Positions 5,229 through 42,850 of a stretch of DNA of 64,000 nucleotides are shown in pieces. The notes under the pieces are model-generated. The model saw nothing but the letters and a program-made list of their open reading frames with translations. It made no database searches and had not been told where the DNA came from. The position numbers and the translations under genes are program-made. The stretch spans positions 1-64,000 of the IMG/VR virus record IMGVR_UViG_3300045996_000592. One strand, 5' to 3'. Source of the stretch: a virus. The stretch's first letter is position 1, and each line of letters starts with the position of its first letter.

Positions 5229-5457
5229 CCGAACAAAAAACCGAACAAAAGGTTTAGGAAGAGGGCTAAAAATAGAAAAGTAGGTTACTTAAAGTATTGA
5301 TTATCAGCCGGCCCGGTAGCTCAGCTGGATAGAGCACCAGCCTTCTAAGCTGGGGGTCATTGGTTCGTTCAAACTTCTGAAACACAGTACTGATACCACT
5401 CCTAGGACTTATCTGTTACCTTACCACCCTGAATATCGAACAAAACTCCGAACGTTT
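5229..5457. mobile_element. Putative attP site
   Basis: CCGAACAAAA direct-repeat pair (5229-5250) and a degenerate pair (5436-5457) flank a tRNA fragment; IHF consensus AATCAA-TACT-TTA on the - strand at 5290-5302. Confidence 0.75.
5310..5367 (+). pseudogene. 5' fragment of tRNA-Arg(UCU), attP core
   Basis: GGCCCGG TAGCTCAGCTGGATAGAGCA CCAGC-CTTCTAA-GCTGG GGGTC ATTGG TTCG; no 3' T-stem or acceptor strand follows. Confidence 0.85.
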
Positions 5458-5906
5458 TAAGCAGCTTTATATCTTTCTCCGCTATTAATTCCCTGTAGAG
5501 TCGAATAGTGTATGCCGAGTTCTTTGGCTAACTGCCTTAAGGATGTGTCTCCTCTGTTTTTTAATGCTTCCCGGATTTCAGTAATCCTTTCCAAAGGAAT
5601 AGAGTTGTTATGGGCTGCCGCGATAAGTACCGAGGATCTTCCTTTTTTAAAGGCATCTTTCATATTATCTGAGTATGTTCCCAGAAAGAAATGATCTGGG
5701 TTAATACAGGCCCTATTATCACAGATGTGGCAAACAAGTAGCCCCGGCGGTATTACTCCACGGGTGAGCTCATAAGACAGTCGATGGGCACCAACCACTT
5801 TACCTTTATACCTAACGGCACCATATCCTGCACGTTTGGCACCCTGCCAGATCATACATTCATTTTCGTCAGTTATTGTTCTACTATATAATTTCTCTTT
5901 ATCCAT
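5457..5906 (-). CDS. HNH homing endonuclease (HNH_3-like) with C-terminal HTH
   Basis: C..WQG...GYG...AHRLSY...[20 protein letters not shown]. Confidence 0.9.
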
Positions 5907-5933
5907 ATGATAGGGAGTTTTTAGGTAGGATCA

Positions 5934-5965
5934 CTAATATAACGAAAAGTACCCTTAAACCCAAA
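5934..5965 (-). promoter_or_regulatory. Bacteroidota-type promoter toward HNH/int
   Basis: TTTG-N20-TATATTAG on the - strand. Confidence 0.5.
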
Positions 5966-6025
5966 AATCGACAACACCGAGTTGGCATGATTGTGTAATT
6001 AGTTTAGTAGTCCCCAGAACAGAAA

Positions 6026-6056
6026 TTAGGATTATTAATTAGAAGAAGTATATTTG
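6026..6056 (+). promoter_or_regulatory. Bacteroidota-type promoter
   Basis: TTAG-N19-TATATTTG (-33/-7 consensus TTTG...TAnnTTTG). Confidence 0.6.
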
Positions 6057-6097
6057 TTGGATGAATAAAAACCATATACTACTAAACTAATACCATC

Positions 6098-6439
6098 ATG
6101 AGTAAAGACGAAAAAAAGAACCAGGTAGCCCTACTTACCAAAGAAGGAAAGTCTATCGCGCAGATAGCTAAGACTACCGGTTTATCTAAAGCCACGGTAT
6201 CTAACTACCGGGCACTCCTTAAAGATGAAGGGGTTACGACCCCGAATATTAAGGGTAAACCCGGAGTTACAACAGCTCCCGGGGCTACACAGCGCCCACA
6301 AGGGACTAATAGTCCTCAGCAGTCATCATTTACCTCAGGTACCACCCGGTTTGTTATTGACGGTATATCCGTACAGCTGCCCCCAGGTTCCCGGATCAAG
6401 ATAATGCCTACTGGAGAAGTGGATATCAAGACCCATTAA
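6098..6439 (+). CDS. HTH DNA-binding protein, candidate regulator
   Basis: EGKSIAQIAKTTGLSKATVSNY HTH; has its own promoter and terminator, next to the integration module. Confidence 0.8.
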   Translation: MSKDEKKNQVALLTKEGKSIAQIAKTTGLSKATVSNYRALLKDEGVTTPNIKGKPGVTTAPGATQRPQGTNSPQQSSFTSGTTRFVIDGISVQLPPGSRIKIMPTGEVDIKTH

Positions 6440-6481
6440 AATTCTCCACTTATTTTTGGGGAACATAATACCCAAATACAG

Positions 6482-6513
6482 ACCTCGGTTTTATAACCGG
6501 GGTTTTTTATTTT
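6482..6513 (+). terminator. Intrinsic terminator
   Basis: ACCTCGGTT-loop-AACCGGGGT followed by a T-run. Confidence 0.7.
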
Positions 6514-6526
6514 ACCGGAAGATATT

Positions 6527-6568
6527 TTTGGATATCTGAATAATATAGGTTAAGTTTAGGATACCTAA
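6527..6568 (+). promoter_or_regulatory. Promoter overlapped by two 13-bp operator-like palindromes
   Basis: TTTG-N20-TAAGTTTA; TTTGG-ATA-TCTGA and TTAGG-ATA-CCTAA. Confidence 0.6.
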
Positions 6569-7757: not shown

Positions 7758-8255
7758 ATGAAGAAGAACTTTAACCAGCATCGGGTATATACGGTGTCAG
7801 AATACGGTACTAAACTAATCTACACTGATACAGGTAAGGTCAAAATATTAGACCAGCGCAAACCTACTAACATCCTCAGGGATATACAGCGTCACGGTAC
7901 TTCTCATAAGGGAGTACGTTACCAGAATGAGCCGCGCGACTGGGAACTCAAACAAATCATTTATGGGCCGAGGAAGTACGACCCTTCCATGACCCCGGAG
8001 GAATACAGTCATTATGAGATCGCTCACCAGAAGTTAGTATTAATAGTGCGTGATATGAAGCGTAAGGCTCTCTCGTGGGCTGACCAGATGCTCGGTATGT
8101 TTAAGACCACTCTGTCTACCCCGGATGTCACCGACGCGGAACTCGACAGTATGAAGTTATTGGACTTCGGTATAACCAGGGAAGAACTTATCCGCCTTAT
8201 CTGTGGCCAGGAAGACCTCTTCTTTTCTCCTAACAAGATAAATCTCGCGGCGTGA
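7758..8255 (+). CDS. Hypothetical protein
   Basis: 165-aa ORF ending QEDLFF...NLAA. Confidence 0.7.
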   Translation: MKKNFNQHRVYTVSEYGTKLIYTDTGKVKILDQRKPTNILRDIQRHGTSHKGVRYQNEPRDWELKQIIYGPRKYDPSMTPEEYSHYEIAHQKLVLIVRDMKRKALSWADQMLGMFKTTLSTPDVTDAELDSMKLLDFGITREELIRLICGQEDLFFSPNKINLAA

Positions 8256-16143: not shown

Positions 16144-17131
16144 TTTATTGTGGACAGTTTTAGAAGTACAATCCGAATCAGGGAACGTAAAGTTCATGAA
16201 CCGGCTGGTTAAGAAGATAGCCGAATCCTTCGGGGCTCAGGTAAAAGAAGATAAGGGTAATATCTACGTAACAAAAGGTGAGGCTGACAGTTATAACTGT
16301 ATCGTAGCGCACACCGATACCGTACACAGGATCATCCCGCAGAATCACTACAAGGTGTTAGAGTTGGAAGGAAGAGTATTCGCCTATAATACAAAGGATA
16401 TGAAACCTACGGGTATAGGTGGGGACGATAAATGTGGGATTGCTATAGCATTGACCGCTATCCGGGATCTTCCTGTTATCAAGGCCGCATTCTTCAGAGA
16501 CGAGGAGACAGGTGGTGAAGGTTCTCAGGAAGCAGATATGAGTTTCTTTAATGATTGTAATTTTGTTCTCCAGTGTGACCGTAAGGGTAATTCTGGGTTC
16601 GTGGATAACATCTACGGAGAACCTCTTTATGCAGACAACTTCAGGGAGGACATCTATCCCGTACTGGAAAAATACGGGTATAAGGAGGTTGAAGGTATGT
16701 TTACTGATGTCTATCAACTGGCCTGTAACGATCTACCCATAGCCTGTGCTAACATAGAGTGTGGGTACTATGCTCCTCATACGTCTACAGAGTATATTAT
16801 ACTAAAGGACTGGGAGAACTGTAAGAAGATGGTACTGGAGATGTTAAGTACGTTCACGAAGAAGTACAAGATCGACCGCGTACCGCCGTATTCTGGTAAA
16901 GGACGTTATTCTGAAAACCGTTATTTCTGGGAGGAAAGGGCTACAGGTGCCGGCCATTTCGATGGACGAGACTACTGGGATTTCTGCTGGAGTTGTAATG
17001 AGTACGATATTCTGAATGAGAGTAATATGTGTTGCGAGTTCTGTACTGAGGCAGTGGGGATGACTAAGAAGGAGAAGAAGTCCCCTATTGTCAAATCACA
17101 GAAAGAGTTATTCCTGGATTTTAAGTTATGA
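16136..17131 (+). CDS. M28/M20-type Zn peptidase-like protein
   Basis: AHTDTVH, GGDDKCG, DEETG, QCDR, GYYAPHT metal-ligand motifs. Confidence 0.85.
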   Translation: MDSLLWTVLEVQSESGNVKFMNRLVKKIAESFGAQVKEDKGNIYVTKGEADSYNCIVAHTDTVHRIIPQNHYKVLELEGRVFAYNTKDMKPTGIGGDDKCGIAIALTAIRDLPVIKAAFFRDEETGGEGSQEADMSFFNDCNFVLQCDRKGNSGFVDNIYGEPLYADNFREDIYPVLEKYGYKEVEGMFTDVYQLACNDLPIACANIECGYYAPHTSTEYIILKDWENCKKMVLEMLSTFTKKYKIDRVPPYSGKGRYSENRYFWEERATGAGHFDGRDYWDFCWSCNEYDILNESNMCCEFCTEAVGMTKKEKKSPIVKSQKELFLDFKL

Positions 17132-17535
17132 TACAGGCAAAAGACGTGGTAAAAGAGTTCTTCAGTGAACTCGAACGATTGATACTCAGGCCGGCGCAGG
17201 ACGCAGGGCTAACTAAAATATCAGAACTCTTCCTGTACCACGGGTTCATACACTCCAGTAAAGAGTGGTTTATCCATAATATAGAAGAAGCGGAATACTG
17301 GGAAGAAAAATTCGATGCTGCAGAAGAAGAACGAAATAATATAGACAGGGATCTACAAGACATGGAAGCTCAGGTAGACGACATAGCCAGTGATCTCAGT
17401 AATATCACTGATAAACTGGAAAACGCGGACCCGGATGAAACAGCCCGGTTAGTAGCAGAGCTAAAGGGACGAATAGAAGACCTGGAGAGCGCTACCGGCT
17501 GGAGGACTAAACCGACTAAAAAGAAAGCAGCATGA
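17128..17535 (+). CDS. Coiled-coil hypothetical protein
   Basis: Heptad-rich acidic ORF ending KKKAA. Confidence 0.65.
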   Translation: MIQAKDVVKEFFSELERLILRPAQDAGLTKISELFLYHGFIHSSKEWFIHNIEEAEYWEEKFDAAEEERNNIDRDLQDMEAQVDDIASDLSNITDKLENADPDETARLVAELKGRIEDLESATGWRTKPTKKKAA

Positions 17536-19154: not shown

Positions 19155-19718
19155 ATGACCAAGGAAGATTACAAGAAAAACTTATCCCGAACTCTCATTA
19201 ACCGGTTCCGGGAAGAGTATTATGAGAAGATAGGGGTCTATCCGGATGTAAAACCTCCGGTATGGGATAAAATACCCCTCAACGAACTGAGAAGGATATG
19301 TGATAAGGTTTTACCTAACGAGTACACAGTAGTAGGGTTTAAAGGGTATTACTCAAGTAATGGTCCTGTTCCTATAAACATTATCCGTGAAACCGGTTTC
19401 ACTACTATTCTGGCTAGAACCCGTAAACTACCGATTGTACGCCTCAGGAAGATTTTTATACACTTCGCCCTGGAGATGGGGTACTCTTCTGTAGTAATTG
19501 GAAAGTATCTAGGATTAGATCACGCCACTGTGTTATACTGCAACAAAGAGTGTCAGAAACATCTACAGGCACACCCGGATTTTATAGAGTTATACACTCA
19601 AGTAAACGACCTCTTATATGATACACCCGCTATTCGATCTGCTGCTGCAAAAGAAGGTGACTCCGAACCAATTCATGTGTCTTTGGTACCAATCTCAGTC
19701 GATTCAGCCGCCGCTTAA
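19155..19718 (+). CDS. DnaA C-terminal (domain IV)-like HTH protein
   Basis: TRK..IV..R.IF......GYS...IG..LG.DHATVLY. Confidence 0.8.
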   Translation: MTKEDYKKNLSRTLINRFREEYYEKIGVYPDVKPPVWDKIPLNELRRICDKVLPNEYTVVGFKGYYSSNGPVPINIIRETGFTTILARTRKLPIVRLRKIFIHFALEMGYSSVVIGKYLGLDHATVLYCNKECQKHLQAHPDFIELYTQVNDLLYDTPAIRSAAAKEGDSEPIHVSLVPISVDSAAA

Positions 19719-22892: not shown

Positions 22893-23326
22893 ACCACACA
22901 AAGTTTTTTGAAGACATAGACCAGACAGGAGGGTATATCAACCGATTAGTCTGGATAGCAGGCCAGTTAGATAGTAACACCCTTACCGATTTACTGGATG
23001 ATATGGAACCTGAAGATATAGAAGACTGCTTCCCGGGTTTTGATCTTTCTAACTATGACGGAGACTCTAAGGAATTAAAAGAATACATCAGTAGTGAAAG
23101 TAAACCCGGTTTTCTGGCGGAATGTTATTTCCAGCACCAGTACGGGTTCCATTTCCCTGAAGGCAGTAAAACCCCGACATCCTGGAGCAGCAGTCGTGGA
23201 GTTTCTACGATCTACTGGGTGTACGCAGAGTCATTTCCTGAGCTGATAAGGAAGATGACTAAGATCGGTAAATCTCATCATAAGAATGAAATCAGGAGAG
23301 AACTAAAAAAGAAACAAACAGTATGA
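22889..23326 (+). CDS. Hypothetical protein
   Basis: ATGA-coupled ORF. Confidence 0.6.
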   Translation: MNHTKFFEDIDQTGGYINRLVWIAGQLDSNTLTDLLDDMEPEDIEDCFPGFDLSNYDGDSKELKEYISSESKPGFLAECYFQHQYGFHFPEGSKTPTSWSSSRGVSTIYWVYAESFPELIRKMTKIGKSHHKNEIRRELKKKQTV

Positions 23327-23856
23327 GTACAGCAGTAAAAAGAGGCTGGTCGGAGATGTTAGAAGACTCCATCAGCTACAACCGGTCCCTACTGGAAAAG
23401 ATGGGGTTGAGTACAGACCCCAAGAAGAAGGGGATAACCGCCAAGAAGATCTTCAGCTGGGCCCGACAACAGGGTGGACAGAAGGAAGACTGCTTCTATA
23501 TGTTCAAGGAAGAAGGGGAGAAGGATCTGATGTTAATAGAGTTCTTCAACGCGGACGGTTACCCACTGATACCCCGAAAGACTTACAAATGGATCGGGTC
23601 TCCAACCGCATTCACATCTGAACACGAAGAAGGTCAGTACGGGTTCCGTGTGTATATGGACGAGCTAATCGAAGTAAAACCAGAAGCAGGTATGCTGGCA
23701 CCCTGGATAGACCCGGTAAATGAGCCCGAGGTATCATCAGTTATCAGGTTCGATAAGATGACAGCCAACGACTTTTTAGCAGTATTTCACGGAGTACCCT
23801 GCGCAGATCACGAAAGTATAAATAGAAAGATCAGGGAGATAAAATCAGCAGCATAA
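23323..23856 (+). CDS. Hypothetical protein
   Basis: Coupled ORF ending KSAA. Confidence 0.65.
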   Translation: MSTAVKRGWSEMLEDSISYNRSLLEKMGLSTDPKKKGITAKKIFSWARQQGGQKEDCFYMFKEEGEKDLMLIEFFNADGYPLIPRKTYKWIGSPTAFTSEHEEGQYGFRVYMDELIEVKPEAGMLAPWIDPVNEPEVSSVIRFDKMTANDFLAVFHGVPCADHESINRKIREIKSAA

Positions 23857-23858
23857 CT

Positions 23859-24509
23859 ATGGCAGACAATAAGGGGTTGGTCACCTTAACAGACCAGAAA
23901 GACTTCTTGCAGTCTTTAATAGACTCGAAGAAGTTACCATCACACATTAAAACAGTAGAGGATGCCTTTACTGTTGCGCAGATGGGTAAAGAACTGGGAT
24001 TTCCGACTCTTCAAGCCATGCACTACATAATACCTGTTCAGGGAAGGTTAACTCTATCTGCTAAGGCTACTGCTGCCCTCTTAAGAAAGGGCGGTATAAA
24101 GTTCCGCACACTGGAAGATGGTATGTATGTGTATAATGATGGTTCTATATCTGAGTACGCTAAGACTGATCCTAAACCCATTGATCAGAGAACGGTTATC
24201 CTGTTTATCAGGGATGGTATGGAAGAAAAGGTGTCCTTTACCATGAGGGACGCAGAGGCTCAGGGATTAACCGGAAAGGATAACTGGTTGCGTTTAAGAA
24301 AAGAGATGCTGTACGCCCGTTGTTTGGCCAAGGGTGCTAACAGGATCGGGCAGGATCTCCTCCTCGGTCTATACACAGCAGAGGAAATGACAGACTCTCT
24401 TAACGTACCGGAGACCCAGATAAAGAGGAATGAAGAAGGTGAGATCGAGACCATCGACACCACACACGAAGAAGTAACAGAAGATAACAACCCGGCAGCA
24501 GCCGCGTAA
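23859..24509 (+). CDS. RecT/Bet-like single-strand annealing protein
   Basis: G.ELG...LQAM..I..VQGR.TLSA, FT..DA...GL..KDNW...KEMLYAR, GLYTAEEM. Confidence 0.75.
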   Translation: MADNKGLVTLTDQKDFLQSLIDSKKLPSHIKTVEDAFTVAQMGKELGFPTLQAMHYIIPVQGRLTLSAKATAALLRKGGIKFRTLEDGMYVYNDGSISEYAKTDPKPIDQRTVILFIRDGMEEKVSFTMRDAEAQGLTGKDNWLRLRKEMLYARCLAKGANRIGQDLLLGLYTAEEMTDSLNVPETQIKRNEEGEIETIDTTHEEVTEDNNPAAAA

Positions 24510-28158: not shown

Positions 28159-28165
28159 CAGTTTT

Positions 28166-29670: not shown

Positions 29671-29676
29671 GTCTGT

Positions 29677-29937: not shown

Positions 29938-29944
29938 CAAACTA

Positions 29945-30997: not shown

Positions 30998-31026
30998 AGA
31001 AGAACCTATGAATAAAAGAAGAACTA

Positions 31027-31635
31027 ATGACAGAGATCAAAACACTGTACCAGAACTACCATCAAAAATCCAAAACCTTCCTGAGCAGTCTGTTAGGGCT
31101 GCACCCACAGAGTTATATTCAGGCATTACAAACCTACATCAGCTGGCCTAAGTACGGAATAACCCCGGAAGATAGATTACTATTATTACTGTACAACAAG
31201 TTACCGGGGACCGGATACGAAAAATATAAAAATCTACTCCTCTGTAATACCCTCTATCACTCCCACTACGAAACAATAGACGACCGGGAAGTATTCCTGT
31301 TCTCTTTTGAATCCTACGGGGCTGACTGGGGGTATTTTCTTGAGGGGAAGTATAGTAAACTCAGCCTGTTTTTTAAGTCCACAGTGTCCAGATATTACAA
31401 GAACACCCCGGAAGCGCCTTATATAGACAGTTACCTGTACCCCGATCGTTACCGGGAGAACTACACCCGGCTCCTTTGGGATAACAGTGATATAGAGAAA
31501 TACGAACCCCAGAACTGGTTAGAAGAACTCTGTGACAAACCCGACTTAGTTAGGGAGGAGTGTAGAGAGACTGTAGAAAATTTTGGGTATCTAAAAAATA
31601 TCCCTAACTTAGCGAAACTAAAAGATCAGATATGA
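31027..31635 (+). CDS. Hypothetical protein
   Basis: QKSK.FL...LG, FLEGKYSK, ELCDKPD blocks. Confidence 0.7.
   Translation: MTEIKTLYQNYHQKSKTFLSSLLGLHPQSYIQALQTYISWPKYGITPEDRLLLLLYNKLPGTGYEKYKNLLLCNTLYHSHYETIDDREVFLFSFESYGADWGYFLEGKYSKLSLFFKSTVSRYYKNTPEAPYIDSYLYPDRYRENYTRLLWDNSDIEKYEPQNWLEELCDKPDLVREECRETVENFGYLKNIPNLAKLKDQI
31582..31612 (+). promoter_or_regulatory. Promoter overlapped by an operator-like palindrome
   Basis: TTTGG-GTA-TCTAA; TTTG-N19-TAACTTAG. Confidence 0.55.
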
Positions 31636-32030
31636 CCAACCAACTACCCACCCCATCTATGATGCTCATCAGTAAGACGGTGTATAACAAACTCAGGGGG
31701 TTATCCCTTATCCCAGTGGATAATAACTGTCCTTTCCTGGAAGCCATCTACGACCCGCAGAATAAGGTGCTGGCCGTCCTGTCCAAGGAGACCCGTCAGG
31801 TATACGATCTGTTTCCGAAACTCACCGAGTACGGGCAGAACCAGACCAAGAACGGTAAAACTCTACTCGAACGTCGTGCCGTGGACAACTACCATGAATA
31901 TTATGTTACTGAAAGAACCGATATAGAGTCCTTCATCAAGATGTTCGCGGTAAATCACAAAGACTTCCCATACCAGGAGATCCTTAATCAAGAGGTAGAA
32001 AAAACTGCGGATGAGAAAATAGCAGCCTAA
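31632..32030 (+). CDS. Hypothetical protein
   Basis: IPV...CPFLEAIYDP..KVLAV; ends KIAA. Confidence 0.7.
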   Translation: MTNQLPTPSMMLISKTVYNKLRGLSLIPVDNNCPFLEAIYDPQNKVLAVLSKETRQVYDLFPKLTEYGQNQTKNGKTLLERRAVDNYHEYYVTERTDIESFIKMFAVNHKDFPYQEILNQEVEKTADEKIAA

Positions 32031-32060
32031 ATCGTAAAAACCAATCACACCTTATAGTAA

Positions 32061-32083
32061 GAGCCGGTTCGCCCGGCTTTTTC
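32061..32083 (+). terminator. Intrinsic terminator
   Basis: AGCCGG-TTCGC-CCGGCT followed by TTTT. Confidence 0.7.
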
Positions 32084-32106
32084 TATCGGGTCTAAAGACA
32101 GATGTT

Positions 32107-32770: not shown

Positions 32771-32781
32771 ACCCCTGTCTT

Positions 32782-34764
32782 ATGATTTACCTGATAACCG
32801 GCCAGTCTCAGCTCCACACAGAGGGCGCGGGATATAAACTGACCACGATAGAAGAAGTAGAACGGTACTTATCCGGAGTAGAGGAAGCCTCAGTAGATAC
32901 AGAGACTACTGGGTTAGACGCTCATCGGGATAAACTACATACCCTGCAGATAGGTGATTACTATAACCAGTACATTATAGACGCCTCAACAACGGACATT
33001 ACCCGGTTGAAGCCCTACCTAGAAGAACGCTTGTTACTGATCCAGAACGCTAAGTTCGACCTGAAGTTCTTGTATAAGTACGGAATATACCCGCGTAAGG
33101 TGTGGGATACCTTCGTTACGGAGCGGGTTCTTTACTGCGGAATACCCGACCATAAGGCCGGTTTAGATTCACTGGTTCAACAGTACTGTAACATTACTTT
33201 GGATAAATCAGTACAGAAGACTATAGCAAAAGAAGGGCTGGTTACCAAAAACCTTCAGTATATGGCTGACGATATAAAGTATCTGTCAGCTATCAGGGAT
33301 AAGCAGCTGGTCGATCTCAGGAAGAAATATCTAAAGGGTACCTCTAATCTTGAAAACAAGTTTGTACCGGTCTTAGCCTACATCGAATACTGTGGTATGA
33401 AGCTGAACGTACCCAAGTGGACGGAGAAGATGATCACGGATAAAGACCGGATGAATAAGGCTAGGATAACCTTGGACAACTGGATACTGAATAAAGGTAT
33501 TAAGAAGTTTATCGAGGTGCAGGGTAACCTCTTCGACCCTCCGGGATGTACTGTTAACTGGTCTTCACCTAAACAGGTAGTAGATCTGCTCGAGCACCTT
33601 GGGGTAAACTGTACGATCGTAGAGAAGGGTAAGGAGAAGAAGTCGGTGGAGGCCTCAGTGATAGAGAAACAGAAGAACGAGTTTGAGATCATCTCCCTGT
33701 ACCTGGAATATAAGAAGGCGGAAAAAATAGTTGGTACATATGGAGAGAACTTTATCCGTCAGATTAACCCGGTAACCGGTAGAATACATACCAAGTTCAC
33801 TCAGATAATGGATACTGGCAGGATGTCTTCAGGCGGTAAGGACCGCGCTACAAAAGAAGAGTTCATCAACTTCCAGAACATACCATCTGACCCGGAAACG
33901 CGATCTTGTTTTATAGCAGAACCGGGAAGTACGCTGGTAGTATCGGACTACTCCGGTCAAGAGCAGATAGTACTCGCTAATAGGTGTCTGGATAAAAACC
34001 TGCTAAAGTTCTATGATGAAGGGCTGGCTGATATGCACTCATTCGTGGCGTCTAAGATGTACCCCGAACTCGAAGGGTTAGACCTTGACGAGATAAAGAA
34101 GTTACATAAGGATAAAAGACAGGCGGCTAAATCTGCTGGCTTCGCCATAAATTATGGTGGGAGTGGCATTACCATAGCAGATAACCTCGGTATCAGTAAA
34201 GAGGATGGGGATCGGATTTATAACGCCTACTTCCAAGCCTTTCCGGGGTTAAGTGACTACTTCAAGAAGGTGAAACAGCAGGGACTAAATGATGGTTATA
34301 TCCTGATAAGTCCAATAACAGGTAGGAAGTCTTATATCTACTTCTTCGACCGGTATAAGGAACTAGAAGCCCAAACAAAAGGAGACTTCTGGGAACGCTA
34401 CCGGGAAGCTAAGAAAACTCAGTCTAAAGACTGGCCAGAACTATCCAAGACCTGCCGAGAGTACTTCCAGTTAAAGGGAGAAATAGAGCGTATGACTCTT
34501 AACTACCCGATCCAGGGAAGTTCCGCCGACGTAACCAAGATTGCCTGTGTCTACTTCTATAACTGGATTATCAACAATAACTACTTCTGGACTGTGAAGA
34601 TCCCGAACGTAGTTCATGATGAGGTAGTGGCAGAGTGCCCCGTAGACCTCGGAGAAGAGGTGTCTCAGGTGTTACACGATACTATGGGTAAGGCAGGAGA
34701 TATATACTGTAAGAGAGTGCCACTAAAGGCAGACCCGGAACTAACAAGTGTATGGAAAAAATAG
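32782..34764 (+). CDS. polA: Family A DNA polymerase with 3'-5' exonuclease
   Basis: DTETTG, NAKFD, TGRMSS, FQNIP, DYSGQE, RQAAKSAGFAINYG, NYPIQG, VHDE. Confidence 0.95.
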   Translation: MIYLITGQSQLHTEGAGYKLTTIEEVERYLSGVEEASVDTETTGLDAHRDKLHTLQIGDYYNQYIIDASTTDITRLKPYLEERLLLIQNAKFDLKFLYKYGIYPRKVWDTFVTERVLYCGIPDHKAGLDSLVQQYCNITLDKSVQKTIAKEGLVTKNLQYMADDIKYLSAIRDKQLVDLRKKYLKGTSNLENKFVPVLAYIEYCGMKLNVPKWTEKMITDKDRMNKARITLDNWILNKGIKKFIEVQGNLFDPPGCTVNWSSPKQVVDLLEHLGVNCTIVEKGKEKKSVEASVIEKQKNEFEIISLYLEYKKAEKIVGTYGENFIRQINPVTGRIHTKFTQIMDTGRMSSGGKDRATKEEFINFQNIPSDPETRSCFIAEPGSTLVVSDYSGQEQIVLANRCLDKNLLKFYDEGLADMHSFVASKMYPELEGLDLDEIKKLHKDKRQAAKSAGFAINYGGSGITIADNLGISKEDGDRIYNAYFQAFPGLSDYFKKVKQQGLNDGYILISPITGRKSYIYFFDRYKELEAQTKGDFWERYREAKKTQSKDWPELSKTCREYFQLKGEIERMTLNYPIQGSSADVTKIACVYFYNWIINNNYFWTVKIPNVVHDEVVAECPVDLGEEVSQVLHDTMGKAGDIYCKRVPLKADPELTSVWKK

Positions 34765-34770
34765 TGCCCC

Positions 34771-35490
34771 ATGAAACCGTTATCAGATCATAAAGATAAA
34801 TCAGGAATATACTGTATTAAGAATATACAGAATGGTAAAGTTTATATAGGTAAGGCCAAATGTATCTTCAGTAGGATTCAGAGTCATATTTATGCTCTTA
34901 CCGGACGAAATAGTAAGAAGTCTAACTCTTATTTAATAAACTCCTGGCATAAGTATGGTCCGGACGCCTTCACATATTCAGTACTTGAAAACGTTGATTT
35001 TACAGATGAGTCCTTAATGCGGGATAGAGAACTTTATTGGATAAATCTAATGAATGCCCTGGACCCAGACAAGGGATATAATCTAAGATCCGACTCATCT
35101 ACAGGAATGGTTACTCATGAAAAAACCTCTAAGAAAATATCAGATCGACTAAAGAAAGAGTGGGAAGCTGGGTTAAGATCTAGTCACTCAGAAAAATTAA
35201 AGAAAAAGTGGGAGGAGGCTCCCCAAAGACGGACTGAACAGGGGAAGATGCTTTCTAAGATTAAAACTAAGTACTTCTATCATATAATAAATCCATCTGA
35301 TAAAGAAGACCTAGGAAGTTCTATGGTGATGGATATGTCTCCCGGAGTTCATGGAGGGTACGATTTACTAAAGAAGTTAGGACTACAGAACTGTATAACA
35401 ACCTTTTTTAATCGTAAGTCTAATTCTATATCCTTTAAGGGGTACGATATTATAAGATTCAACCCAGATACTGCACCTGAATTTGATTAA
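34771..35490 (+). CDS. GIY-YIG homing endonuclease
   Basis: SGIYCI.N..NGKVYIGKA, RELYWI, GYNL. Confidence 0.9.
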   Translation: MKPLSDHKDKSGIYCIKNIQNGKVYIGKAKCIFSRIQSHIYALTGRNSKKSNSYLINSWHKYGPDAFTYSVLENVDFTDESLMRDRELYWINLMNALDPDKGYNLRSDSSTGMVTHEKTSKKISDRLKKEWEAGLRSSHSEKLKKKWEEAPQRRTEQGKMLSKIKTKYFYHIINPSDKEDLGSSMVMDMSPGVHGGYDLLKKLGLQNCITTFFNRKSNSISFKGYDIIRFNPDTAPEFD

Positions 35491-35569
35491 GTACACAACA
35501 TTAACAAGAAGATCACCCGGGGGTACACTCAGCTAGACCTCTTCGGGATGGCCGCGTAAAACAGAAGTT

Positions 35570-36115
35570 ATGAAGAAGAGAACATCTATAGATTTCAGTA
35601 AGCACGTACTAACTACGTTTGAGGATAAGTACGTCACTATTTACGAGTTTAAAATACCCGGAACCTACACCCACAGTATGAAGTTTATTAACACGTCAGG
35701 GGTGATGACGGTCACCGGGGATTGGGGTAACTGGGTCTTCTGTAGAGAGTTTCATCCGGGCCCGGAAAATGGGGTTTCAGATGGTTACTGGATAGAGAAA
35801 CTACACATCAGTTCCTGTCAAAAACCCTATAAGTATGATTCTGACGAGACTACAAGAAGATTAAAGGAACGTTTACAAGAGATCAAGGAGGAATACGAAG
35901 AGGGAAGTAGGTATGAACAGTTAAAAGAGTACTACGAGAGCTGTCTGGAAAACGTGGACGACTATTATGACTACATACAGGCAGCTCGGGACCACCCCGG
36001 TTTTATGGATGCAGAGAGTATAATAGAAGGTAAAGAACTAAACAGATGGTTAGAGGCAATCTTCGACGGGTTCGACGAGATATGTTCCCGGATGAAGGTC
36101 GCTCAGGCCGCGTAA
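35570..36115 (+). CDS. Hypothetical phage protein
   Basis: VTGDWGNWVF...YWIEKL block; ends AQAA. Confidence 0.7.
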   Translation: MKKRTSIDFSKHVLTTFEDKYVTIYEFKIPGTYTHSMKFINTSGVMTVTGDWGNWVFCREFHPGPENGVSDGYWIEKLHISSCQKPYKYDSDETTRRLKERLQEIKEEYEEGSRYEQLKEYYESCLENVDDYYDYIQAARDHPGFMDAESIIEGKELNRWLEAIFDGFDEICSRMKVAQAA

Positions 36116-36263
36116 ACAAACATTTTATGATAGAATTACTAATAGGAGTAGGCGGCCTCATCGTATGCTGGATAGCGTACAGAGCAGGTTACAGGAACGG
36201 TCTTGTAGCAGCAGAAGATGATGAGTATGATAACGATTATGAACCGGAAGAATTTACAGGAGT

Positions 36264-36731
36264 ATGATAAACAACTTTGATATACCTACCCTAACAGACG
36301 TTATGGTAGCGGTAACAGCCTACAAACAGTTGGCCCACTATTTTCCCTCGATAAACAGGGAGCAAACAGAACAGATAAAGCCTTACTGGGACAAGTGGCA
36401 GAAAAATGTTGGCACTGATCGTACAGGTTACAGTAGGTTCCATGAGTTCTGGTCAGACATAGAGTTACACCTTGTATCCCAAACATGGGGTAGTACCGCT
36501 TGCGGGTGGGGTGGAATCGGCGGGGCTGCTATAACTACCGCATATACTCTCGTTATCACCAACAAACACCTGAATGCAGCATTCATCTACTGGGCCGGTA
36601 AACTGGCGTATGTAGTGGACATGGATAAGAAATATCAAACTCTGATAACAGGGGAGTCAGGTTACTCCGCGCTACCAGGACTGAACAGGGTGAAAGAAAG
36701 ATTAACCGTTATATACAGTGAGAGAAGATGA
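36264..36731 (+). CDS. Hypothetical protein
   Basis: QTWGSTACGWGGIGGAAIT motif. Confidence 0.7.
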   Translation: MINNFDIPTLTDVMVAVTAYKQLAHYFPSINREQTEQIKPYWDKWQKNVGTDRTGYSRFHEFWSDIELHLVSQTWGSTACGWGGIGGAAITTAYTLVITNKHLNAAFIYWAGKLAYVVDMDKKYQTLITGESGYSALPGLNRVKERLTVIYSERR

Positions 36732-37258
36732 CACCAACATTAATACAGAAGTGCTGGGAGGTACATGATAGGACTACAGTAGACTGGTCGTTATCCTATG
36801 AAGCTCGTCAGCACTATACCTACAGAGAACACATACTGGCAGAAACCGCGTCTAAGGCTAAGGGTAAGTTTATAGAACACGCCCGGTTTATCGACCTGAA
36901 AGCTGTACGCTGTGAGGAGTACGACCAAGTAGAAGTAGACGGTAAAAAGATGAGGCGTAATGAGGTAGACAACTACCTTAGAAAGCAGGAGAGAAAGAAG
37001 AAGATACAAGAACTACCGGAAGATCAGCTCTACTACGTTCAGAACGGGTTCGTGGGTAACTGCCCGCTCTTCTGGGGACTCGGTAACTGCGGGTACACCT
37101 CAGACCTTGATAAAGCCCAGAAGTACACCAAAGAACAGATAGTAAAAGAGTTTTCTAACCCACGGGAACAGGATATTATCTGGTTAGCTGCAGAAGTAGA
37201 CAGTAAAGTAAAAAGAATAGTAGATCACCAGTACTTAGATTACACAAAAAGCGTATGA
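36728..37258 (+). CDS. Hypothetical protein
   Basis: FVGN...FW....GYT.DL.KA..YT motif. Confidence 0.7.
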   Translation: MTPTLIQKCWEVHDRTTVDWSLSYEARQHYTYREHILAETASKAKGKFIEHARFIDLKAVRCEEYDQVEVDGKKMRRNEVDNYLRKQERKKKIQELPEDQLYYVQNGFVGNCPLFWGLGNCGYTSDLDKAQKYTKEQIVKEFSNPREQDIIWLAAEVDSKVKRIVDHQYLDYTKSV

Positions 37259-37653
37259 TAACACAGATATATCAGTTGCTCTTCGGTAAAAAGAAAGAGC
37301 AGAAAAAAGAACAGAAGCGCCCCGCTACACCTTACGGGGGTAGTTCAACCCAGTCATCTAATGCGAATGACTCCCAGAGTTCTTATGACCCGCTGCTCGA
37401 TCCGATGAACCCGGTCAGTCCTTTGTGGATCGGGAACTCAGATAGTTCTTCCAATCATAATAATAACTCTTTCGGTGGGTACGGTGGAGGGGAAAGTGGT
37501 GGCTCTGGAGCAGGCGGTTCATGGGAATCACACAGTAACCACTCTTACGATAGCGGGAGTACCTACGACAGTTCCCCCTCTTATGGCTCAGATAGCAGCT
37601 CTTATGATAGTGGTAGTTCTTTTGACAGCAGTTCATCCGGGAGTTTTGACTAA
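37255..37653 (+). CDS. Ser/Gly-rich low-complexity protein
   Basis: FGGYGGGESGGSGAGGSW and repeated SYDS units. Confidence 0.65.
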   Translation: MITQIYQLLFGKKKEQKKEQKRPATPYGGSSTQSSNANDSQSSYDPLLDPMNPVSPLWIGNSDSSSNHNNNSFGGYGGGESGGSGAGGSWESHSNHSYDSGSTYDSSPSYGSDSSSYDSGSSFDSSSSGSFD

Positions 37654-37892
37654 ACCTTTGATCGTATGACCTACACAGTAGACTTCCCGGATGATGTAGA
37701 TGTATTCTACTGGGACTACATCATAGAACCGACTCAGAGATCAGGGATAAATAAAATAATAGTCTTCTTCGAACACGATACCCGGCGCACTACAAAATTC
37801 GTAGGACACACTACCCGGTCTAACGCAGATTGGCGGGAGTTCCAGATAACAGAAGAAGAACAGGAAGGTAAGAGAAAACTAATATTTAAGAT

Positions 37893-38288
37893 ATGAAGCA
37901 CACCATAAAAACCTATGAATATAAGCGGATAGAAAAAACCGCTACCGAGATAGAGATACCCGAAGAGACTATATACTGTTTTCAAACTGGTATACGTCGG
38001 GCAGTTAAGATAGAACCTCAATGGACTACTTGGAATAAAGAGAACTACCAAAAAGATGAAGAAGTGTGGAACCTTAAAATTACCTGTGTATATAACTCTT
38101 TCGAGTGTAAAATAGAGCAGTATACTATACAGGTTTCTCAGCTTGAGGATAATATAAATCGCGGTAAAGATTCCTACAGTATTCCTAACCTTTTACTCCA
38201 CCGTGATTTTAACCTACGTACAAAAGAACAGTTTGAGGCTGACTTAAAGATAGCTCTCGATAAAATAACCGGTGTAACTGAAGATTAA
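37893..38288 (+). CDS. Hypothetical protein
   Basis: ATGA-coupled ORF. Confidence 0.6.
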   Translation: MKHTIKTYEYKRIEKTATEIEIPEETIYCFQTGIRRAVKIEPQWTTWNKENYQKDEEVWNLKITCVYNSFECKIEQYTIQVSQLEDNINRGKDSYSIPNLLLHRDFNLRTKEQFEADLKIALDKITGVTED

Positions 38289-38290
38289 TT

Positions 38291-38551
38291 ATGACACAAA
38301 AAGTAGAACTACTATACCGGGACGCTGCTAACTACAAGTTCTGAGTAACAGCAGAGATAGACTGGGAATCACTTGGTTTCCCCAGCCCCCTAGAAGTAGA
38401 CCAGGATATAGAGATGGAGCAACTCAGGTTAGACCCGTACAAGTTCGTTCCGGCAAGAATGGGTTTTCCGTGGAATGAGGATGACCACAACATCCTGACC
38501 GTTGAGGAAATCCTGAAAGAAGACATAGAAGTAGAATTAACGATAAAGTAA
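38291..38551 (+). pseudogene. YRDAxNYK-motif gene interrupted by an in-frame TGA
   Basis: MTQKVELLYRDAANYKF*VTAEID...EDDHN...; TGA at 38342-38344; the frame fills the intergenic gap. Confidence 0.65.
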
Positions 38552-38570
38552 ACCTTAAAAACAACAAAAG

Positions 38571-39584
38571 ATGGCTCACAAGATCAATTATAATAACGGT
38601 AAGTACGCCTTTGCCTCATCCGAGAAGGAATGGCATTCAGGGGAGACTAACCACCACATTCACGGGCGGGAGATGACCGCTGAAGAGATTATCCGGTTAG
38701 CCGGCCTTGACTACGACGTACAGAAGATGCCGATCGTGGCTAAAGTACCTTCCGGCCGGTTCAGCATGGACGTACCAGTGGATGGGAACTTCGCTACCGT
38801 AAGAACAGATACCAACCAGGTACTCGGAATAGTAGGTAAGAAGTATCAGATACTACAGAATAAAGACGCCTTTAAGTTCTTCGACTCTATCGTAGGGGAA
38901 GGTGAAGCCATGTATCATACCGCCGGCGCTCTTGGTAACGGAGAGAAGATATTCATCACAGCTAAACTCCCGCAGAAATTAGTAATAACTCCGGATGATG
39001 TAACAGACCAGTACCTCTTCCTCTGCAATAGCCACGACGGATCTGGCAGTCTTTCTGCGTACTTCACGCCGATCCGGGTAGTGTGCAACAATACACTCAG
39101 GTTATCCATGAAGTCTAATTCCTACAGGATAAACCTCAGACATACCGCGAATATCGTAAAGGCGCTGGAACAGGCCCACGAACTGATGGGGATTGTCAAT
39201 AGAGAAGGTCAGGACTTCTTGGAAGTGTGTAAGACCATGACCCGGGTATCGGTTACAGACCAGCAGCTCAGGAAGTTTATCGAGTTATCCCTCAAACCGG
39301 AGACCGAAATGATCACAGAGGATGAGTTCTCTAAAAGATTCACAAATATAGCTGACGCAGCCTATGAGTACGCACTATCTGACGAGACTCAGCTGATGGA
39401 TACAACTCGTGGTACACTATACGGCGCATTCCAGGCAGTGACCGGCTACTACTCGAATGTGAAGCAGTATAACTCTGGTGAGGATAAAACCAAGTCACTC
39501 ATCTACGGAGCAGGGTATCGCGCCTCTAATCAGGCTTACCAGATGGGAGTAAGGGCATTAAGTAACACTAACTTTTTGAACTAA
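38571..39584 (+). CDS. DUF932 / TIGR03299-like protein
   Basis: Y.ILQN.DAF.FF, AGAL.NG, NSHDGSGS, TPIRVVCNNT, RHT. Confidence 0.88.
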   Translation: MAHKINYNNGKYAFASSEKEWHSGETNHHIHGREMTAEEIIRLAGLDYDVQKMPIVAKVPSGRFSMDVPVDGNFATVRTDTNQVLGIVGKKYQILQNKDAFKFFDSIVGEGEAMYHTAGALGNGEKIFITAKLPQKLVITPDDVTDQYLFLCNSHDGSGSLSAYFTPIRVVCNNTLRLSMKSNSYRINLRHTANIVKALEQAHELMGIVNREGQDFLEVCKTMTRVSVTDQQLRKFIELSLKPETEMITEDEFSKRFTNIADAAYEYALSDETQLMDTTRGTLYGAFQAVTGYYSNVKQYNSGEDKTKSLIYGAGYRASNQAYQMGVRALSNTNFLN

Positions 39585-39592
39585 CCAGCACA

Positions 39593-39627
39593 AGGAAGGT
39601 AGGTCTCAGGATCTACCTTCCTCTTTA
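39593..39627 (+). terminator. Hairpin terminator
   Basis: AGGAAGGTAGGTC...GATCTACCTTCCT followed by CTTT. Confidence 0.65.
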
Positions 39628-40106
39628 AAACTTAACAGGATGACAGAGTATAACATCAAGATATCAGGTTCTGGTACAGCCTTAGAATTAGCGCTTTCCA
39701 TGGATCTCCTTCAGAAAAGTATCATAGATAGTGTGAAGAAGGGGTATTCTCTGGAATCAGACCCCTATTATGAAGATGAGACTATCGTAGTAGAAATAAC
39801 CCAAACATCATTATGATAAAAACCAACCTCACTCCATACAGCTACACCCGGTACTACTCCGGTAATTATTTCGATGGGATAAATGATTACTCCTACTCTG
39901 TCATAACCACAGAGACTTTCGACCTCTGCCCCGAATACCCATTACAGGTAGACTGGACGGACGGGAATATTCCCTATGGGCATGAGCGGATAGAAGCCAA
40001 AATAATACAAGATTTTAATAACAAAAAAGACCAAGAAAGAAAACAGATTGAGGATAACTACAGAAGAGAAGTCCTCGGTGAAGAAGATGAACCTAAAGAC
40101 TAACAG

Positions 40107-40433
40107 ATGACACTAAACCACAAACCTAACCACTACGAAAACACTACCTGCCTTAAAACAGGAAAAACCGGGTTCCCTTCTCAAAGGGTGGCCATGGAAC
40201 AGATCCAAAAATTCAAGGCGTTCAACCGGATGAAGATCAACGGAAGACGTATAAAACACAGAGTCGGTAAACCAGAACAAACCCGCGCCTATCAGTGCCC
40301 ATCTTGTAGCCAATGGCACTTGACCAGTATGAAGGAGTCTGAGTACAAGAACAACCTTGACCCGCTGGGAAAACCAGTGAGGATCAGGATCAACCACGTT
40401 AACGAGTTTAAAAAATATTTATCGGCAGCATGA
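40107..40433 (+). CDS. Zn-finger protein
   Basis: C..TGK...RAYQCPSCSQWHLTS. Confidence 0.7.
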   Translation: MTLNHKPNHYENTTCLKTGKTGFPSQRVAMEQIQKFKAFNRMKINGRRIKHRVGKPEQTRAYQCPSCSQWHLTSMKESEYKNNLDPLGKPVRIRINHVNEFKKYLSAA

Positions 40434-41344
40434 GTAAAAATATCTTAGCCCTATTTGGGGCAGCAGAGTCGGGTAAAGACACAGCCGCTAAGATCATACA
40501 ATATCTTACCGGAGTCAAATATTGGGAACAAAAGACTGAAAGAATTATCGACAACCCGATACCTTACGGGTTAGACGGATATGAGGACTGGGTCGCACTC
40601 AGTCCTTACCAGATAAAGAGGTTCGCCGGTAAAATTAAGGAGATAGCGTCCCTTATTACCGGTGTTCCTGTTTCCCAGTTCGAAGACCAGGAGTTCAAGA
40701 AGTCCTACTTACCGGATAACTGGGACAGGTGGAAAATACAGTTTACCGGGGAACACGGTAATGCTCAGTTTGGACCTAATTACTCATCAAAAGAAGAGGC
40801 TATAGAAACTGAAAAAAATGCCAGAGTTAGTTACGCGTGGCCTAAAAGTTTAAAAACCGTTATTAGAAAAGAACATATGACCTTCCGAGACCTACTTGAA
40901 GAGATTGGCGCCAAGATGAGGGAGGTACACCCTATGTTCTGGATAAACTCCCTGTTTGCAGACTATAAAGGTCATACGGAACGCTACCATAATCTTGAAA
41001 AGGATGGGTTATCTGAGATGTATCACCATCATTCTTGTGCTGAGTGTAGTCGATCCTTTAATGGGTGGAAGAGACAGTACAGATGTCGGGAGTGTATAGA
41101 AAAGAACCCAGTTGTCTACCCCTTATGGTTGATAGCCGACGGACGCCTACCCGAAGAAGCTCAGGTTGTAAAAGAACGTGGGGGCCTTGTTATCAAGATA
41201 GTCCGCGAGACAGATAACCCAGTTTACGAGTCAGAGAGAAAACTGGATCAGGTGGAAGCTGACTACGTGATCTCGAACAATAAGAACAAGGAAGACCTGG
41301 TGAAGAAGTTAAGACTTATTCTCATCAAAGAAGGCATACTATGA
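40430..41344 (+). CDS. Deoxynucleoside monophosphate kinase-like protein
   Basis: GAAESGKDT, FAGKIK, RDLL..IG..MR...FWIN, DGR...E. Confidence 0.8.
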   Translation: MSKNILALFGAAESGKDTAAKIIQYLTGVKYWEQKTERIIDNPIPYGLDGYEDWVALSPYQIKRFAGKIKEIASLITGVPVSQFEDQEFKKSYLPDNWDRWKIQFTGEHGNAQFGPNYSSKEEAIETEKNARVSYAWPKSLKTVIRKEHMTFRDLLEEIGAKMREVHPMFWINSLFADYKGHTERYHNLEKDGLSEMYHHHSCAECSRSFNGWKRQYRCRECIEKNPVVYPLWLIADGRLPEEAQVVKERGGLVIKIVRETDNPVYESERKLDQVEADYVISNNKNKEDLVKKLRLILIKEGIL

Positions 41345-41524
41345 CCGACTTCCTCAAACAGATAAACTGGAAAGAACTCCGGGATGACAGGTTCAACTTG
41401 GAGTATATCGCGGAGTTCGAACCACTGGATGATAAAGACATCAACTCCCTTTATTCAATAGTAGAGCTGATAGACCAGTTACAGCAGGAAGCAGTAAGGT
41501 CAGGAATAACTAAAGAAGAAGTAT

Positions 41525-41737
41525 ATGGACAGTAAATTAAAAGAAGTAGTAGAATGTATCCTTGACTATCTGGAGGATACAGAAGAGCGGAGTTATCTCG
41601 AATCAGATGATAACGTCAGGGATACTCACATCTACGAGGATGTAGTAAGGCTCCGCCAGTGGCAGCAAACCGGGTGGATAGACGAGAATAAAGTACAGGA
41701 GGCACTGAACACCTTAAAAAAGAATCACGGACTATGA
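41525..41737 (+). CDS. Hypothetical protein (paralog of 27578-27904)
   Basis: LDYL...E..SYLES.....HIY. Confidence 0.6.
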   Translation: MDSKLKEVVECILDYLEDTEERSYLESDDNVRDTHIYEDVVRLRQWQQTGWIDENKVQEALNTLKKNHGL

Positions 41738-42008
41738 TAGACGTAGTAAACAAGAAGGTAGACGACCGCCGGCTCACTCATGATGAGGAAGAGTTACTGG
41801 AAGCCGGTCGTAAACAGGGAATGGTACAGGGGTTAGCTCTCGCCGTAGCCACCTTTATGAAATACTGGGGGGAACACGCCGGTATTCAAGAGGTGTGGGG
41901 TTCTGCAGGGATGACTATACAGGAGTGTTACAATAATGGGGTAGACGAGTACGATATAGAAACTCTTATAAAATACCAAGATTACCTCGAAGGATAAAAT
42001 AGACCAAT

Positions 42009-42428
42009 ATGAAACTAACAGATAAAAATACTGGGTACATTCTTATGAATGCTCAGACTCAGTCAGAATGGGATACCTGCACACATGCACTTTTATCCTT
42101 TACCCCAACTGATGTAGAAAAATGGAAAAAATACGCCCAGACAGCTAAGAATTTAAAGGAAGAGAACCCCGACTTCGCCAACCTCAGTTTTTATGAGTCT
42201 GTTGATTTCCTGAATCTGGGAGATGATATTTTACCGGAAGAAGTGGGTTGGTCTTTTGTAGAACTGGAAGAAGGTGAAAATAATTGGGACCAGGAAGAGT
42301 TACCAGAACAACGACTGGATACACATATGATGAAGGTTTATTCAAGTGGGTGCATTCAGTTCACAGCCTACGGTAAACACACTTCCGAGGAGTTCTGGAC
42401 GACACACCTTAAAGTAGAAAGCCTGTAA
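42009..42428 (+). CDS. Hypothetical protein
   Basis: 139-aa ORF ending YGKHTSEEFWT. Confidence 0.65.
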   Translation: MKLTDKNTGYILMNAQTQSEWDTCTHALLSFTPTDVEKWKKYAQTAKNLKEENPDFANLSFYESVDFLNLGDDILPEEVGWSFVELEEGENNWDQEELPEQRLDTHMMKVYSSGCIQFTAYGKHTSEEFWTTHLKVESL

Positions 42429-42452
42429 AAAAGTAGGCTAAATTGTAGATAA

Positions 42453-42483
42453 TGGGTGAGTTCATAGTGGGCTCACCCTTTTT
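42453..42483 (+). terminator. Intrinsic terminator
   Basis: GGGTGAGTTC-loop-GGGCTCACCC followed by TTTTT. Confidence 0.75.
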
Positions 42484-42485
42484 AT

Positions 42486-42517
42486 TTTGGTACTCTAATT
42501 TAGATACTCTAAATTTG
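42486..42517 (+). promoter_or_regulatory. Consensus Bacteroidota promoter covered by two tandem 13-bp palindromes
   Basis: TTTG-N20-TAAATTTG; TTTGG-TAC-TCTAA-T-TTAGA-TAC-TCTAA. Confidence 0.7.
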
Positions 42518-42532
42518 GTAAACCTCACACAC

Positions 42533-42850
42533 ATGACAGAAGAACTAACAGGTAACCCGCGTATCCCGTTCGAGTCTGATACCGTTCTCCAGGTATGGAA
42601 TACGGTAGATAAGGTAGTCATAGGAGTCTACGAGAACGGGAAAGCAGCAGCTATCAAGTTATCCGCCACCTACCAGTCAGTAGTACACTCTTACTCCCGT
42701 AAAAGGGTGGTAAAGGGTAAGATAAAGAGTGATCATTTTACATCCCCGCTCTACCCGGATATACCACTGGCTGCACGACTCATCAGGAGGACTACTGATA
42801 TGTTATTCCGGAACGGGGTGTTATATAACTCACTAAATAACGCAGCATGA
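42533..42850 (+). CDS. Hypothetical protein
   Basis: Start placed after the promoter; ends NNAA. Confidence 0.6.
   Translation: MTEELTGNPRIPFESDTVLQVWNTVDKVVIGVYENGKAAAIKLSATYQSVVHSYSRKRVVKGKIKSDHFTSPLYPDIPLAARLIRRTTDMLFRNGVLYNSLNNAA

Follow-up and report, generated by a model that had tools for sequence, protein, structure and literature searches.

The virus contig IMGVR_UViG_3300045996_000592 of the IMG/VR database (134,155 bp, rated complete by CheckV), whose first 64,000 nucleotides form the window analysed here, encodes proteins that end in Ala-Ala (AA) far more often than expected: 13 of its 185 genes (~7%, about 1 in 14) have an AA C-terminus, against 0.94 expected (binomial P = 2e-11). 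This uncultured soil phage is temperate in type, with an integrase gene and a relative found as a prophage. We propose, with a probability of roughly 0.5, that the AA tails are encoded degrons resembling the ssrA tag, carried by cytoplasmic, mostly DNA-handling, non-virion proteins; the reading of the tails, the protease involved and the purpose of the turnover are what we infer.

The initial annotation of the window had listed ten open reading frames (ORFs) ending in AA-stop, and had put them at roughly one gene in nine. All ten translate as claimed, the proportion holds within the window (10 of 92 genes), and a public protein collection contains independent gene calls for all ten, two of them with a shorter start and the same C-terminus. 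The genome-wide set consists of 184 called genes plus 19155-19718, which the gene caller had dropped for overlap and which we restored since homologues and a public gene call exist. The expectation was taken from the internal AA dipeptide rate (0.0050, with Ala making up 5.7% of residues), which is the comparison of C-terminal with internal dipeptides that the annotation had proposed, and after correction for 400 dipeptides P is about 8e-9. AA is the most frequent C-terminal dipeptide, followed by SL with 6. Over the last 25 positions the AA count peaks with 13 at offset 0, drops to 3 and 1 at the next two offsets (owing to the AAA and AAAA tails) and stays at 0-4 beyond. A single Ala, whether at -1 or at -2, is not enriched outside AA pairs. 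Two VA endings that had been added to the pattern (12517 and 19618) exist, and are not in excess (2 against 0.61 expected, P = 0.12). The excess of AA is real and limited to true gene ends.

The AA-tailed genes, and one open frame that was not counted as a gene, are the following (lengths in amino acids, aa):

5457..5906, minus strand: HNH endonuclease with a C-terminal helix-turn-helix (HTH), 149 aa, ending ...GERYKAA (Pfam HNH_3, 6.8e-10; PHROG endonuclease families)
7758..8255, plus strand: ORFan, 165 aa, ending ...NKINLAA (no homologue but itself among 5.8 billion proteins)
17128..17535, plus strand: coiled-coil-like protein, 135 aa, ending ...TKKKAA, stop overlapping ATGA
19155..19718, plus strand: protein with a DnaA-C-like HTH, 187 aa, ending ...VDSAAA, 101-nt overlap with the next ORF
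23323..23856, plus strand: protein without assigned function, 177 aa, ending ...EIKSAA (no homologue in related loci)
23859..24509, plus strand: RecT-like single-strand annealing protein, 216 aa, ending ...TEDNNPAAAA (PHROG 4171)
31632..32030, plus strand: protein without assigned function, 132 aa (123 aa from an inner start), ending ...DEKIAA
35570..36115, plus strand: conserved phage protein, 181 aa, ending ...KVAQAA (PHROG 5051/4657)
40107..40433, plus strand: small zinc-ribbon-like protein, 108 aa, ending ...KKYLSAA, stop overlapping the next ATG
42452..42850, plus strand: protein without assigned function, 132 aa (105 aa from the inner start at 42533), ending ...SLNNAA, stop overlapping the next ATG
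95396-96712, minus strand, outside the window: tail-fibre-like protein, LIAA end
116987-117835, minus strand, outside the window: exonuclease (PD-(D/E)XK-type), KKAA end
120641-120865, minus strand, outside the window: AA gene, ATAA end
35491..35559, plus strand, not counted: 22-codon open frame with no start codon of its own, ending GMAA-TAA, in frame directly after the TAA of a GIY-YIG endonuclease gene

The NNAA end that had been assigned to an ORF at 42533 is correct; 42533 itself is an inner start of the frame 42452-42850. Six of the AA proteins have a recognisable function, and all six act on DNA: two HNH endonucleases, the PD-(D/E)XK-type exonuclease, the RecT-like protein, the protein with the DnaA-like HTH and the zinc-ribbon protein. 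The gene at 5457-5906 adjoins the tyrosine integrase gene, just upstream on the same strand. The genes 19155-19718 and 19618-20175 overlap by 101 nt in different frames and both have homologues in related loci; either the overlap is genuine or the 19618 ORF starts later.

The annotation had argued from the varied codons that selection acts on the protein, and this view is borne out. The sequence GCNGCN-stop is found at 13 of 185 gene ends, compared with 17 of 13,617 stop triplets outside gene ends and 3 of 1,177 spurious frames of at least 40 codons. All four Ala codons are in use at the terminal positions (GCA 10, GCG 8, GCT 4, GCC 4). BLASTP among the 13 AA proteins gave no match at E<0.1 between any pair, and the only 10-11-mers common to two gene ends are one downstream chance 11-mer and, in another pair, GCAGCATGA plus one base. 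Since four Ala codons are used and the excess is absent from spurious frames, the signal lies at the protein level, independent of codon choice and DNA context.

We then compared the rate of AA ends with that of related phages and of a proxy host. The relative sets partly overlap and many of the loci are near-duplicates, so that they are not independent samples. The counts of AA-ended genes are:

80 metagenome loci around the RecT-like gene (45-72% identity): 0 of 1155, with 3.25 expected
80 IMG/VR loci around the DNA polymerase gene (30-60% identity): 11 of 2120
Whole contig G005 (136 kb, 45% GC): 2 of 182
Whole contig G007: 0 of 69
Whole contig G006 (the Puia provirus described below): 3 of 96
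Whole contig G003:C2: 0 of 113
Whole contig G002:C153: 0 of 147
Whole contig G004:C1: 0 of 55
Leptolyngbya phage Lbo-JY46: 1 of 157

The proxy host has 2 AA ends in 526 genes (11 contigs), where 4.2 are expected, and differs from the phage with P = 1e-6 in a Fisher test. Thus, neither of the two comparisons suggested at the outset, with related phages and with the host, explains the pattern away: no relative set comes near 7%, and the general rate of the proxy host is low. The trait appears, from these sequences, to be confined to this lineage and to have arisen within it, on variable tails. We found no relatives at more than ~72% protein identity in the loci and protein cluster searches, and a nucleotide search of GenBank phages for close relatives gave at best a 100-nt match. 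In the 80 RecT-centred loci, Ala is scarce at the last two positions (3.2% and 2.3%, versus 5.1% overall), and the absence of AA ends (0 of 1155) has P = 0.04; such a depletion would look like the pattern expected from avoidance of accidental degrons.

The proxy host is a metagenome-assembled genome (MAG) of Puia sp. (Chitinophagaceae), chosen because one of its contigs carries a related prophage; it is a stand-in, and the phage's own host may differ. In this contig of 373,651 bp the GC content falls from 52-54% in the first 262 kb to 38-47% in the 110 kb that come after. The 110-kb part encodes 32 proteins homologous to those of the phage, and the element is also recorded in IMG/VR as a provirus. 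A search for the large terminase subunit (TerL) in 401 genomes of the proxy host's family returned the known prophage and one weak match only. Among cultured phages, Leptolyngbya phage Lbo-JY46 has the closest DNA polymerase (54%); it was set aside as a clue to a cyanobacterial host, given only 18 proteins in common and the signal for Bacteroidota from the prophage on the Puia contig and from the lack of Shine-Dalgarno (SD) motifs. SD-like motifs precede 27 of 184 starts in the phage, with 37 of 184 in a control window, which is no enrichment.

The machinery for reading AA tails appears to match in the proxy host. Its clpX gene scores 565 bits, over the cut-off, and encodes the GYVG pore-1 loop and the RKH loop, the two loops that contact Ala-Ala-COO- in the Escherichia coli recognition complex, Ala-Ala-COO- being the key ClpX determinant (according to the cited part of PMC7652416). 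A transfer-messenger RNA (tmRNA) match on contig C12 (126 bits) has a tag frame that ends ...SYAMAA in the Rfam-matched sequence, whose resume codon is not fixed, and ARAGORN called no tmRNA at the proxy-host tmRNA loci. The Puia MAG has a second tmRNA-like match (502 nt, 91 bits, within G001:C50:392966-396467), which may stem from contamination, from a copy on a mobile element or from a gene that has been interrupted. We searched the phage genome for a ClpX or ClpP of its own and found neither.

According to our proposal, about a dozen unrelated soluble cytoplasmic proteins of the phage, several ORFans among them, would bear a genetically encoded C-terminal degron (...Ala-Ala-COO-). The axial pore of the host ClpX would bind the terminal Ala-Ala-carboxylate as it does with tmRNA-tagged proteins, unfold the tailed protein and pass the chain to ClpP, and other ssrA-reading AAA+ proteases may add to this. 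The tailed proteins would then last only during transcription of their genes, with half-lives that may differ according to the residues upstream of AA. The turnover may serve to limit nuclease or recombinase activity, for timing, or for a clean shut-off on lysogeny; the two purposes suggested in the annotation, a timer and the removal of lytic proteins when lysogeny is established, are likewise only possible ones. Proteins that act on DNA, as all the tagged ones of recognisable function do, are ones that a temperate phage has reason to keep in check.

Several properties of the tails bear on this proposal. The 12 non-virion AA proteins have no hydrophobic segment (maximal Kyte-Doolittle mean over 19 residues <=1.07), and therefore are probably cytoplasmic and should meet cytoplasmic proteases. 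Accessibility of the tail was modelled for two of the 13 proteins, the RecT-like protein and 35570. In the AlphaFold (AF2) model of the RecT-like protein (46-sequence alignment, mean predicted local distance difference test score, pLDDT, of 78) residues 201-216 have pLDDT <50 and no secondary structure, and this tail, an extension of 9-11 residues past the ends of its homologues, is predicted to be disordered. The 40107 protein, ~30 aa longer than its one homologue, and the 35570 family, with its freely varying tails, likewise place the AA on variable ends, which speaks for the proposal. In a screen of random C-terminal 5-mers in E. coli, Ala-Ala ends 91% of the top 100 degrons and is necessary, not sufficient, as 39% of the AA-ended 5-mers were weak; upstream Leu is favourable, -3 is a poor position for Gly, Ser, Pro, His or short polar residues, and a neutral or positive net charge is favoured (as given in the cited sections of PMC10862746). 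The phage tails have K, L, K, A, S, A, I, Q, S, N, I, K and T at -3, with Leu, as in ssrA, only in 7758-8255. Positions -5 to -3 hold K/R in 9 of 39 cases (P = 0.04) and D/E in 2 of 39 (P = 0.08), and this composition, rich in K/R and poor in D/E, appears to go in the direction favoured in the E. coli screen. By the E. coli rules, which are maybe not those of the host, the tails would span from good (INLAA) to weak (IKSAA, LNNAA).

A number of observations weigh against the tails being degrons. Many or most of them look suboptimal by the same E. coli rules, which may not be the host's. In the AF2 model of 35570 (mean pLDDT 95.5) the C-terminus lies in a confident helix (159-180), so that this tail is not free in the predicted structure. 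For the tail-fibre-like protein (95396-96712), 21,574 hits at E<=0.001 define a very large family with repeated domains and a conserved end, ...W.L.GNLIA or ...GDLxA. The AA of this protein probably belongs to a structural C-terminus, and 12 cases would then remain. The contrast between non-virion genes (12 of 135) and the virion, lysis and packaging block (1 of 50) is not significant (P = 0.19). Each of the ten AA proteins of the window is a singleton when 15 billion proteins are clustered at 90% identity, and the tails are hardly ever found in more distant homologues. AA is present in 0 of 82 homologues of the RecT-like protein (23859-24509), most of which end ...HTEVK; in 0 of 48 homologues of 35570 (37-54% identity), whose tails vary freely after the conserved ...GFDEIC..LK and its conserved helix; in 0 of 7 homologues of 19155 in related loci; in 0 of 1 for the 40107 protein, whose sole homologue is ~30 aa shorter and ends ...YNKAG; and, in each case only in the copy of the Puia prophage, in 1 of 15 homologues of 31632 (KQAA) and 1 of 11 of the 116987 exonuclease (LKAA). 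Homologues at 35-72% identity are therefore almost never tailed in these families, while relatives should tag their proteins too if turnover mattered generally. The retention of the tail among orthologues that is known from sigma-AntA (see below) is seen in none of the RecT-like, 35570, 19155, 40107, 31632 and exonuclease families.

The two tails common to the phage and the Puia prophage may be either inherited or convergent, and the trees of the two families, in which the phage sits on a long unresolved branch, fit both. Both of these prophage AA ends fall within the three AA-tailed families that the phage shares with the prophage, which has a chance of 3/561 if they were placed at random among the 34 shared proteins, and therefore the same families seem to be favoured for AA tails.

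Alternatively, the AA-stop ends could carry no tag and reflect selection at the nucleotide level, where the final codons would be shaped by the needs of translation termination, of coupling to the following gene or of another feature peculiar to this phage, a reading that we judge to be quite improbable. The stop overlaps the next start codon in four of the 13 genes, three of them as a 4-nt ATGA (40433, 42850 and 116987) and the fourth as GTGA at 8255, given a longer GTG start of the next ORF, and two further AA genes end 2 nt before the next called start. The terminal Ala codons are also skewed to GCA/GCG (18 of 26, versus 850 of 2297 internal ones), and the lack of conservation of the tails in relatives would fit as well. 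Six of the 13 genes, however, are followed by gaps of 11-732 nt, and two run into the next ORF by 34 and 101 nt, the former ending within it; the final codons at the ATGA-overlapped ends of this genome are mostly CTA, TTA and ATA, not GCA. A nucleotide feature is also at odds with the use of all four Ala codons, with the lack of enrichment of GCNGCN-stop outside gene ends, with the absence of the pattern from the virion genes, which are presumably highly expressed, and from the relatives and the proxy host, which are expected to have the same SD-less initiation. A random excess in a genome rich in short genes has in its favour only that any dipeptide could have been singled out at first. With Ala at so low a frequency, with the P value given above even after correction, and with no excess in spurious frames or relatives, its probability is negligible, and we consider chance or composition effectively refuted by the dipeptide statistics and the proxy-host and spurious-frame comparisons.

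A different kind of alternative accepts the signal at the protein level and changes what reads it: ClpA, Lon, FtsH or a lineage-specific phage factor might recognise the tails, or the tails might act collectively as a decoy for ClpXP. In the decoy version, tails made together early in infection might occupy ClpXP and so blunt host responses triggered by proteolysis, such as antitoxin degradation. The confinement of the trait to one lineage fits a lineage-specific reader or strategy, and the many tails that are weak by the E. coli rules (cited part of PMC10862746) would suit binding or competition over fast degradation. The phage also has genes without BLASTP homologues in the relatives compared. 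Two of these occupy 14647-17131, just upstream of the AA-tailed gene 17128-17535. The product of the first, 498 aa long, matches no family; that of the second (16136-17131, 331 aa) weakly resembles M20/PepT-like peptidases (NCBIfam E 1e-7, well short of the cut-off; PHROG 4191 'peptidase'). M20 enzymes, however, are exopeptidases of small substrates, and the match itself is weak. No candidate reader was found, the phage having no ClpX or ClpP of its own, and a decoy would require high expression. We regard this group of explanations as unlikely, and encoded ssrA-like degrons as the best reading of the AA tails.

The ssrA tag added through tmRNA and the natural ssrA-like degrons of ClpX have the same terminal Ala-Ala-carboxylate on cytoplasmic proteins (Flynn et al. 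2001 and 2003, according to PMC7652416 and PMC10862746), and a terminal Ala-Ala with a free carboxylate is what 13 of the 185 phage genes encode. In contrast to ssrA, the phage tag is gene-encoded and not added by trans-translation, and its upstream residues are diverse. The closest phage precedent is mycobacteriophage BPs, where, as in other phages of clusters G/N/P, ssrA-like tags are found on the viral form of the repressor and on the integrase (PMC4557955, PMC9635641, in the parts cited). BPs is likewise a temperate phage that encodes ssrA-like C-terminal tags on its own proteins, and host proteolysis sets their levels there. According to the same parts of these sources, two switch proteins are tagged in the integration-dependent immunity of BPs, and integration at an attP inside the repressor gene removes the tag of the repressor, whereas here the tails are on 12-13 mostly DNA-handling or unassigned proteins. 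The integrase of the present phage (4006-5187, minus strand) has no AA and no ssrA-like tag, ending ...VQNPFN, and the AA-tailed gene beside it resembles an HNH endonuclease that has an HTH and is not clearly a repressor.

For a natural protein with an encoded AA end, the precedent is sigma-AntA, an orphan extracytoplasmic function (ECF) sigma factor of Streptomyces, in which the C-terminal AA is a degron that drives turnover by ClpXP and a change of AA to DD stabilises the protein (cited part of PMC7142297). The AA of sigma-AntA is kept in 67 of 71 orthologues (same source and part), whereas the homologues of the phage proteins almost never share the tail. The ...PAAAA and ...SAAA ends of the RecT-like and 19155 proteins also have a likeness to poly-Ala. 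According to PMC7652416, Lytvynenko et al. reportedly found in 2019 that ribosome-associated quality control in Bacillus adds alanine tails that act as ClpXP degrons; there the tails are untemplated and on stalled chains, here they are encoded. None of the literature searched describes an excess of AA ends across a whole phage.

The genomic setting of the AA genes is as follows. From ~6 to 47.5 kb the plus strand of the window carries an extended block of genes for replication, recombination and nucleotide metabolism, and the minus strand encodes giant virion proteins. Two public sequencing runs filed as soil metagenome, either of which may be the source of this DNA, contain the stretch as contigs that show no difference from the window over 23000-42999 and no variants, and no RNA data set was listed as containing it. 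Within the plus-strand block, the GIY-YIG homing endonuclease gene (34771-35490) directly follows the gene for the 660-aa DNA polymerase. The initial annotation had described the frame behind it, at 35491, as a relic ending in GMAA; the sequence is present, and its status as a relic could not be confirmed, the frame having no start of its own. If the TAA of the GIY-YIG gene is recent, a third homing endonuclease of the phage would formerly have been AA-ended. We considered this frame as kin of an AA-tailed small protein encoded after the polymerase gene of the Puia prophage, and found no significant similarity.

The plus-strand block also contains a pair of genes for nicotinamide adenine dinucleotide (NAD) salvage (window 43537-46361), a ribose-phosphate pyrophosphokinase and a nicotinamide phosphoribosyltransferase. 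The latter is 64% identical to the copy in Leptolyngbya phage Lbo-JY46, well above other genes common to the two phages. Giant ORFs of 1,493 aa and 4,300 aa are on the minus strand, from window position 47544 to genome position 66093, and an additional 1,547-aa virion protein is at genome 73167-77810. These virion ORFs weakly resemble giant proteins encoded by Lbo-JY46 and by the Puia prophage.

Degrons of this type are known. Encoded ssrA-like tags have been recognised on single regulators, namely the BPs repressor and integrase and sigma-AntA, and are not known to extend to 7% of the genes in one phage. What appears to be new is this proportion in one phage, acquired within one lineage. More tentatively, and on the doubtful side of even, about a dozen unrelated proteins of this lineage may each have gained the AA ending independently while the sampled relatives and the proxy host avoid it, which would amount to a recent genome-wide proteolytic programme, acting through graded half-lives of nucleases, the recombinase, replication proteins and ORFans, or as a decoy for ClpXP.

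If ClpXP reads the tails, the temporal programme of the phage would depend on a quality-control protease of the host as well as on transcription, and the contrast with its relatives would make it possible, as is rarely so, to date the origin of a post-translational layer of control to one lineage. C-terminal dipeptides would then be a cheap annotation cue for short-lived phage proteins, the clpX and clpP status of the host would predict the outcome of infection, and the tails would give Bacteroidota genetics a set of naturally occurring degrons that differ in strength. It would also mean that phages can put whole sets of genes under the control of a host protease by changes in the last two codons.

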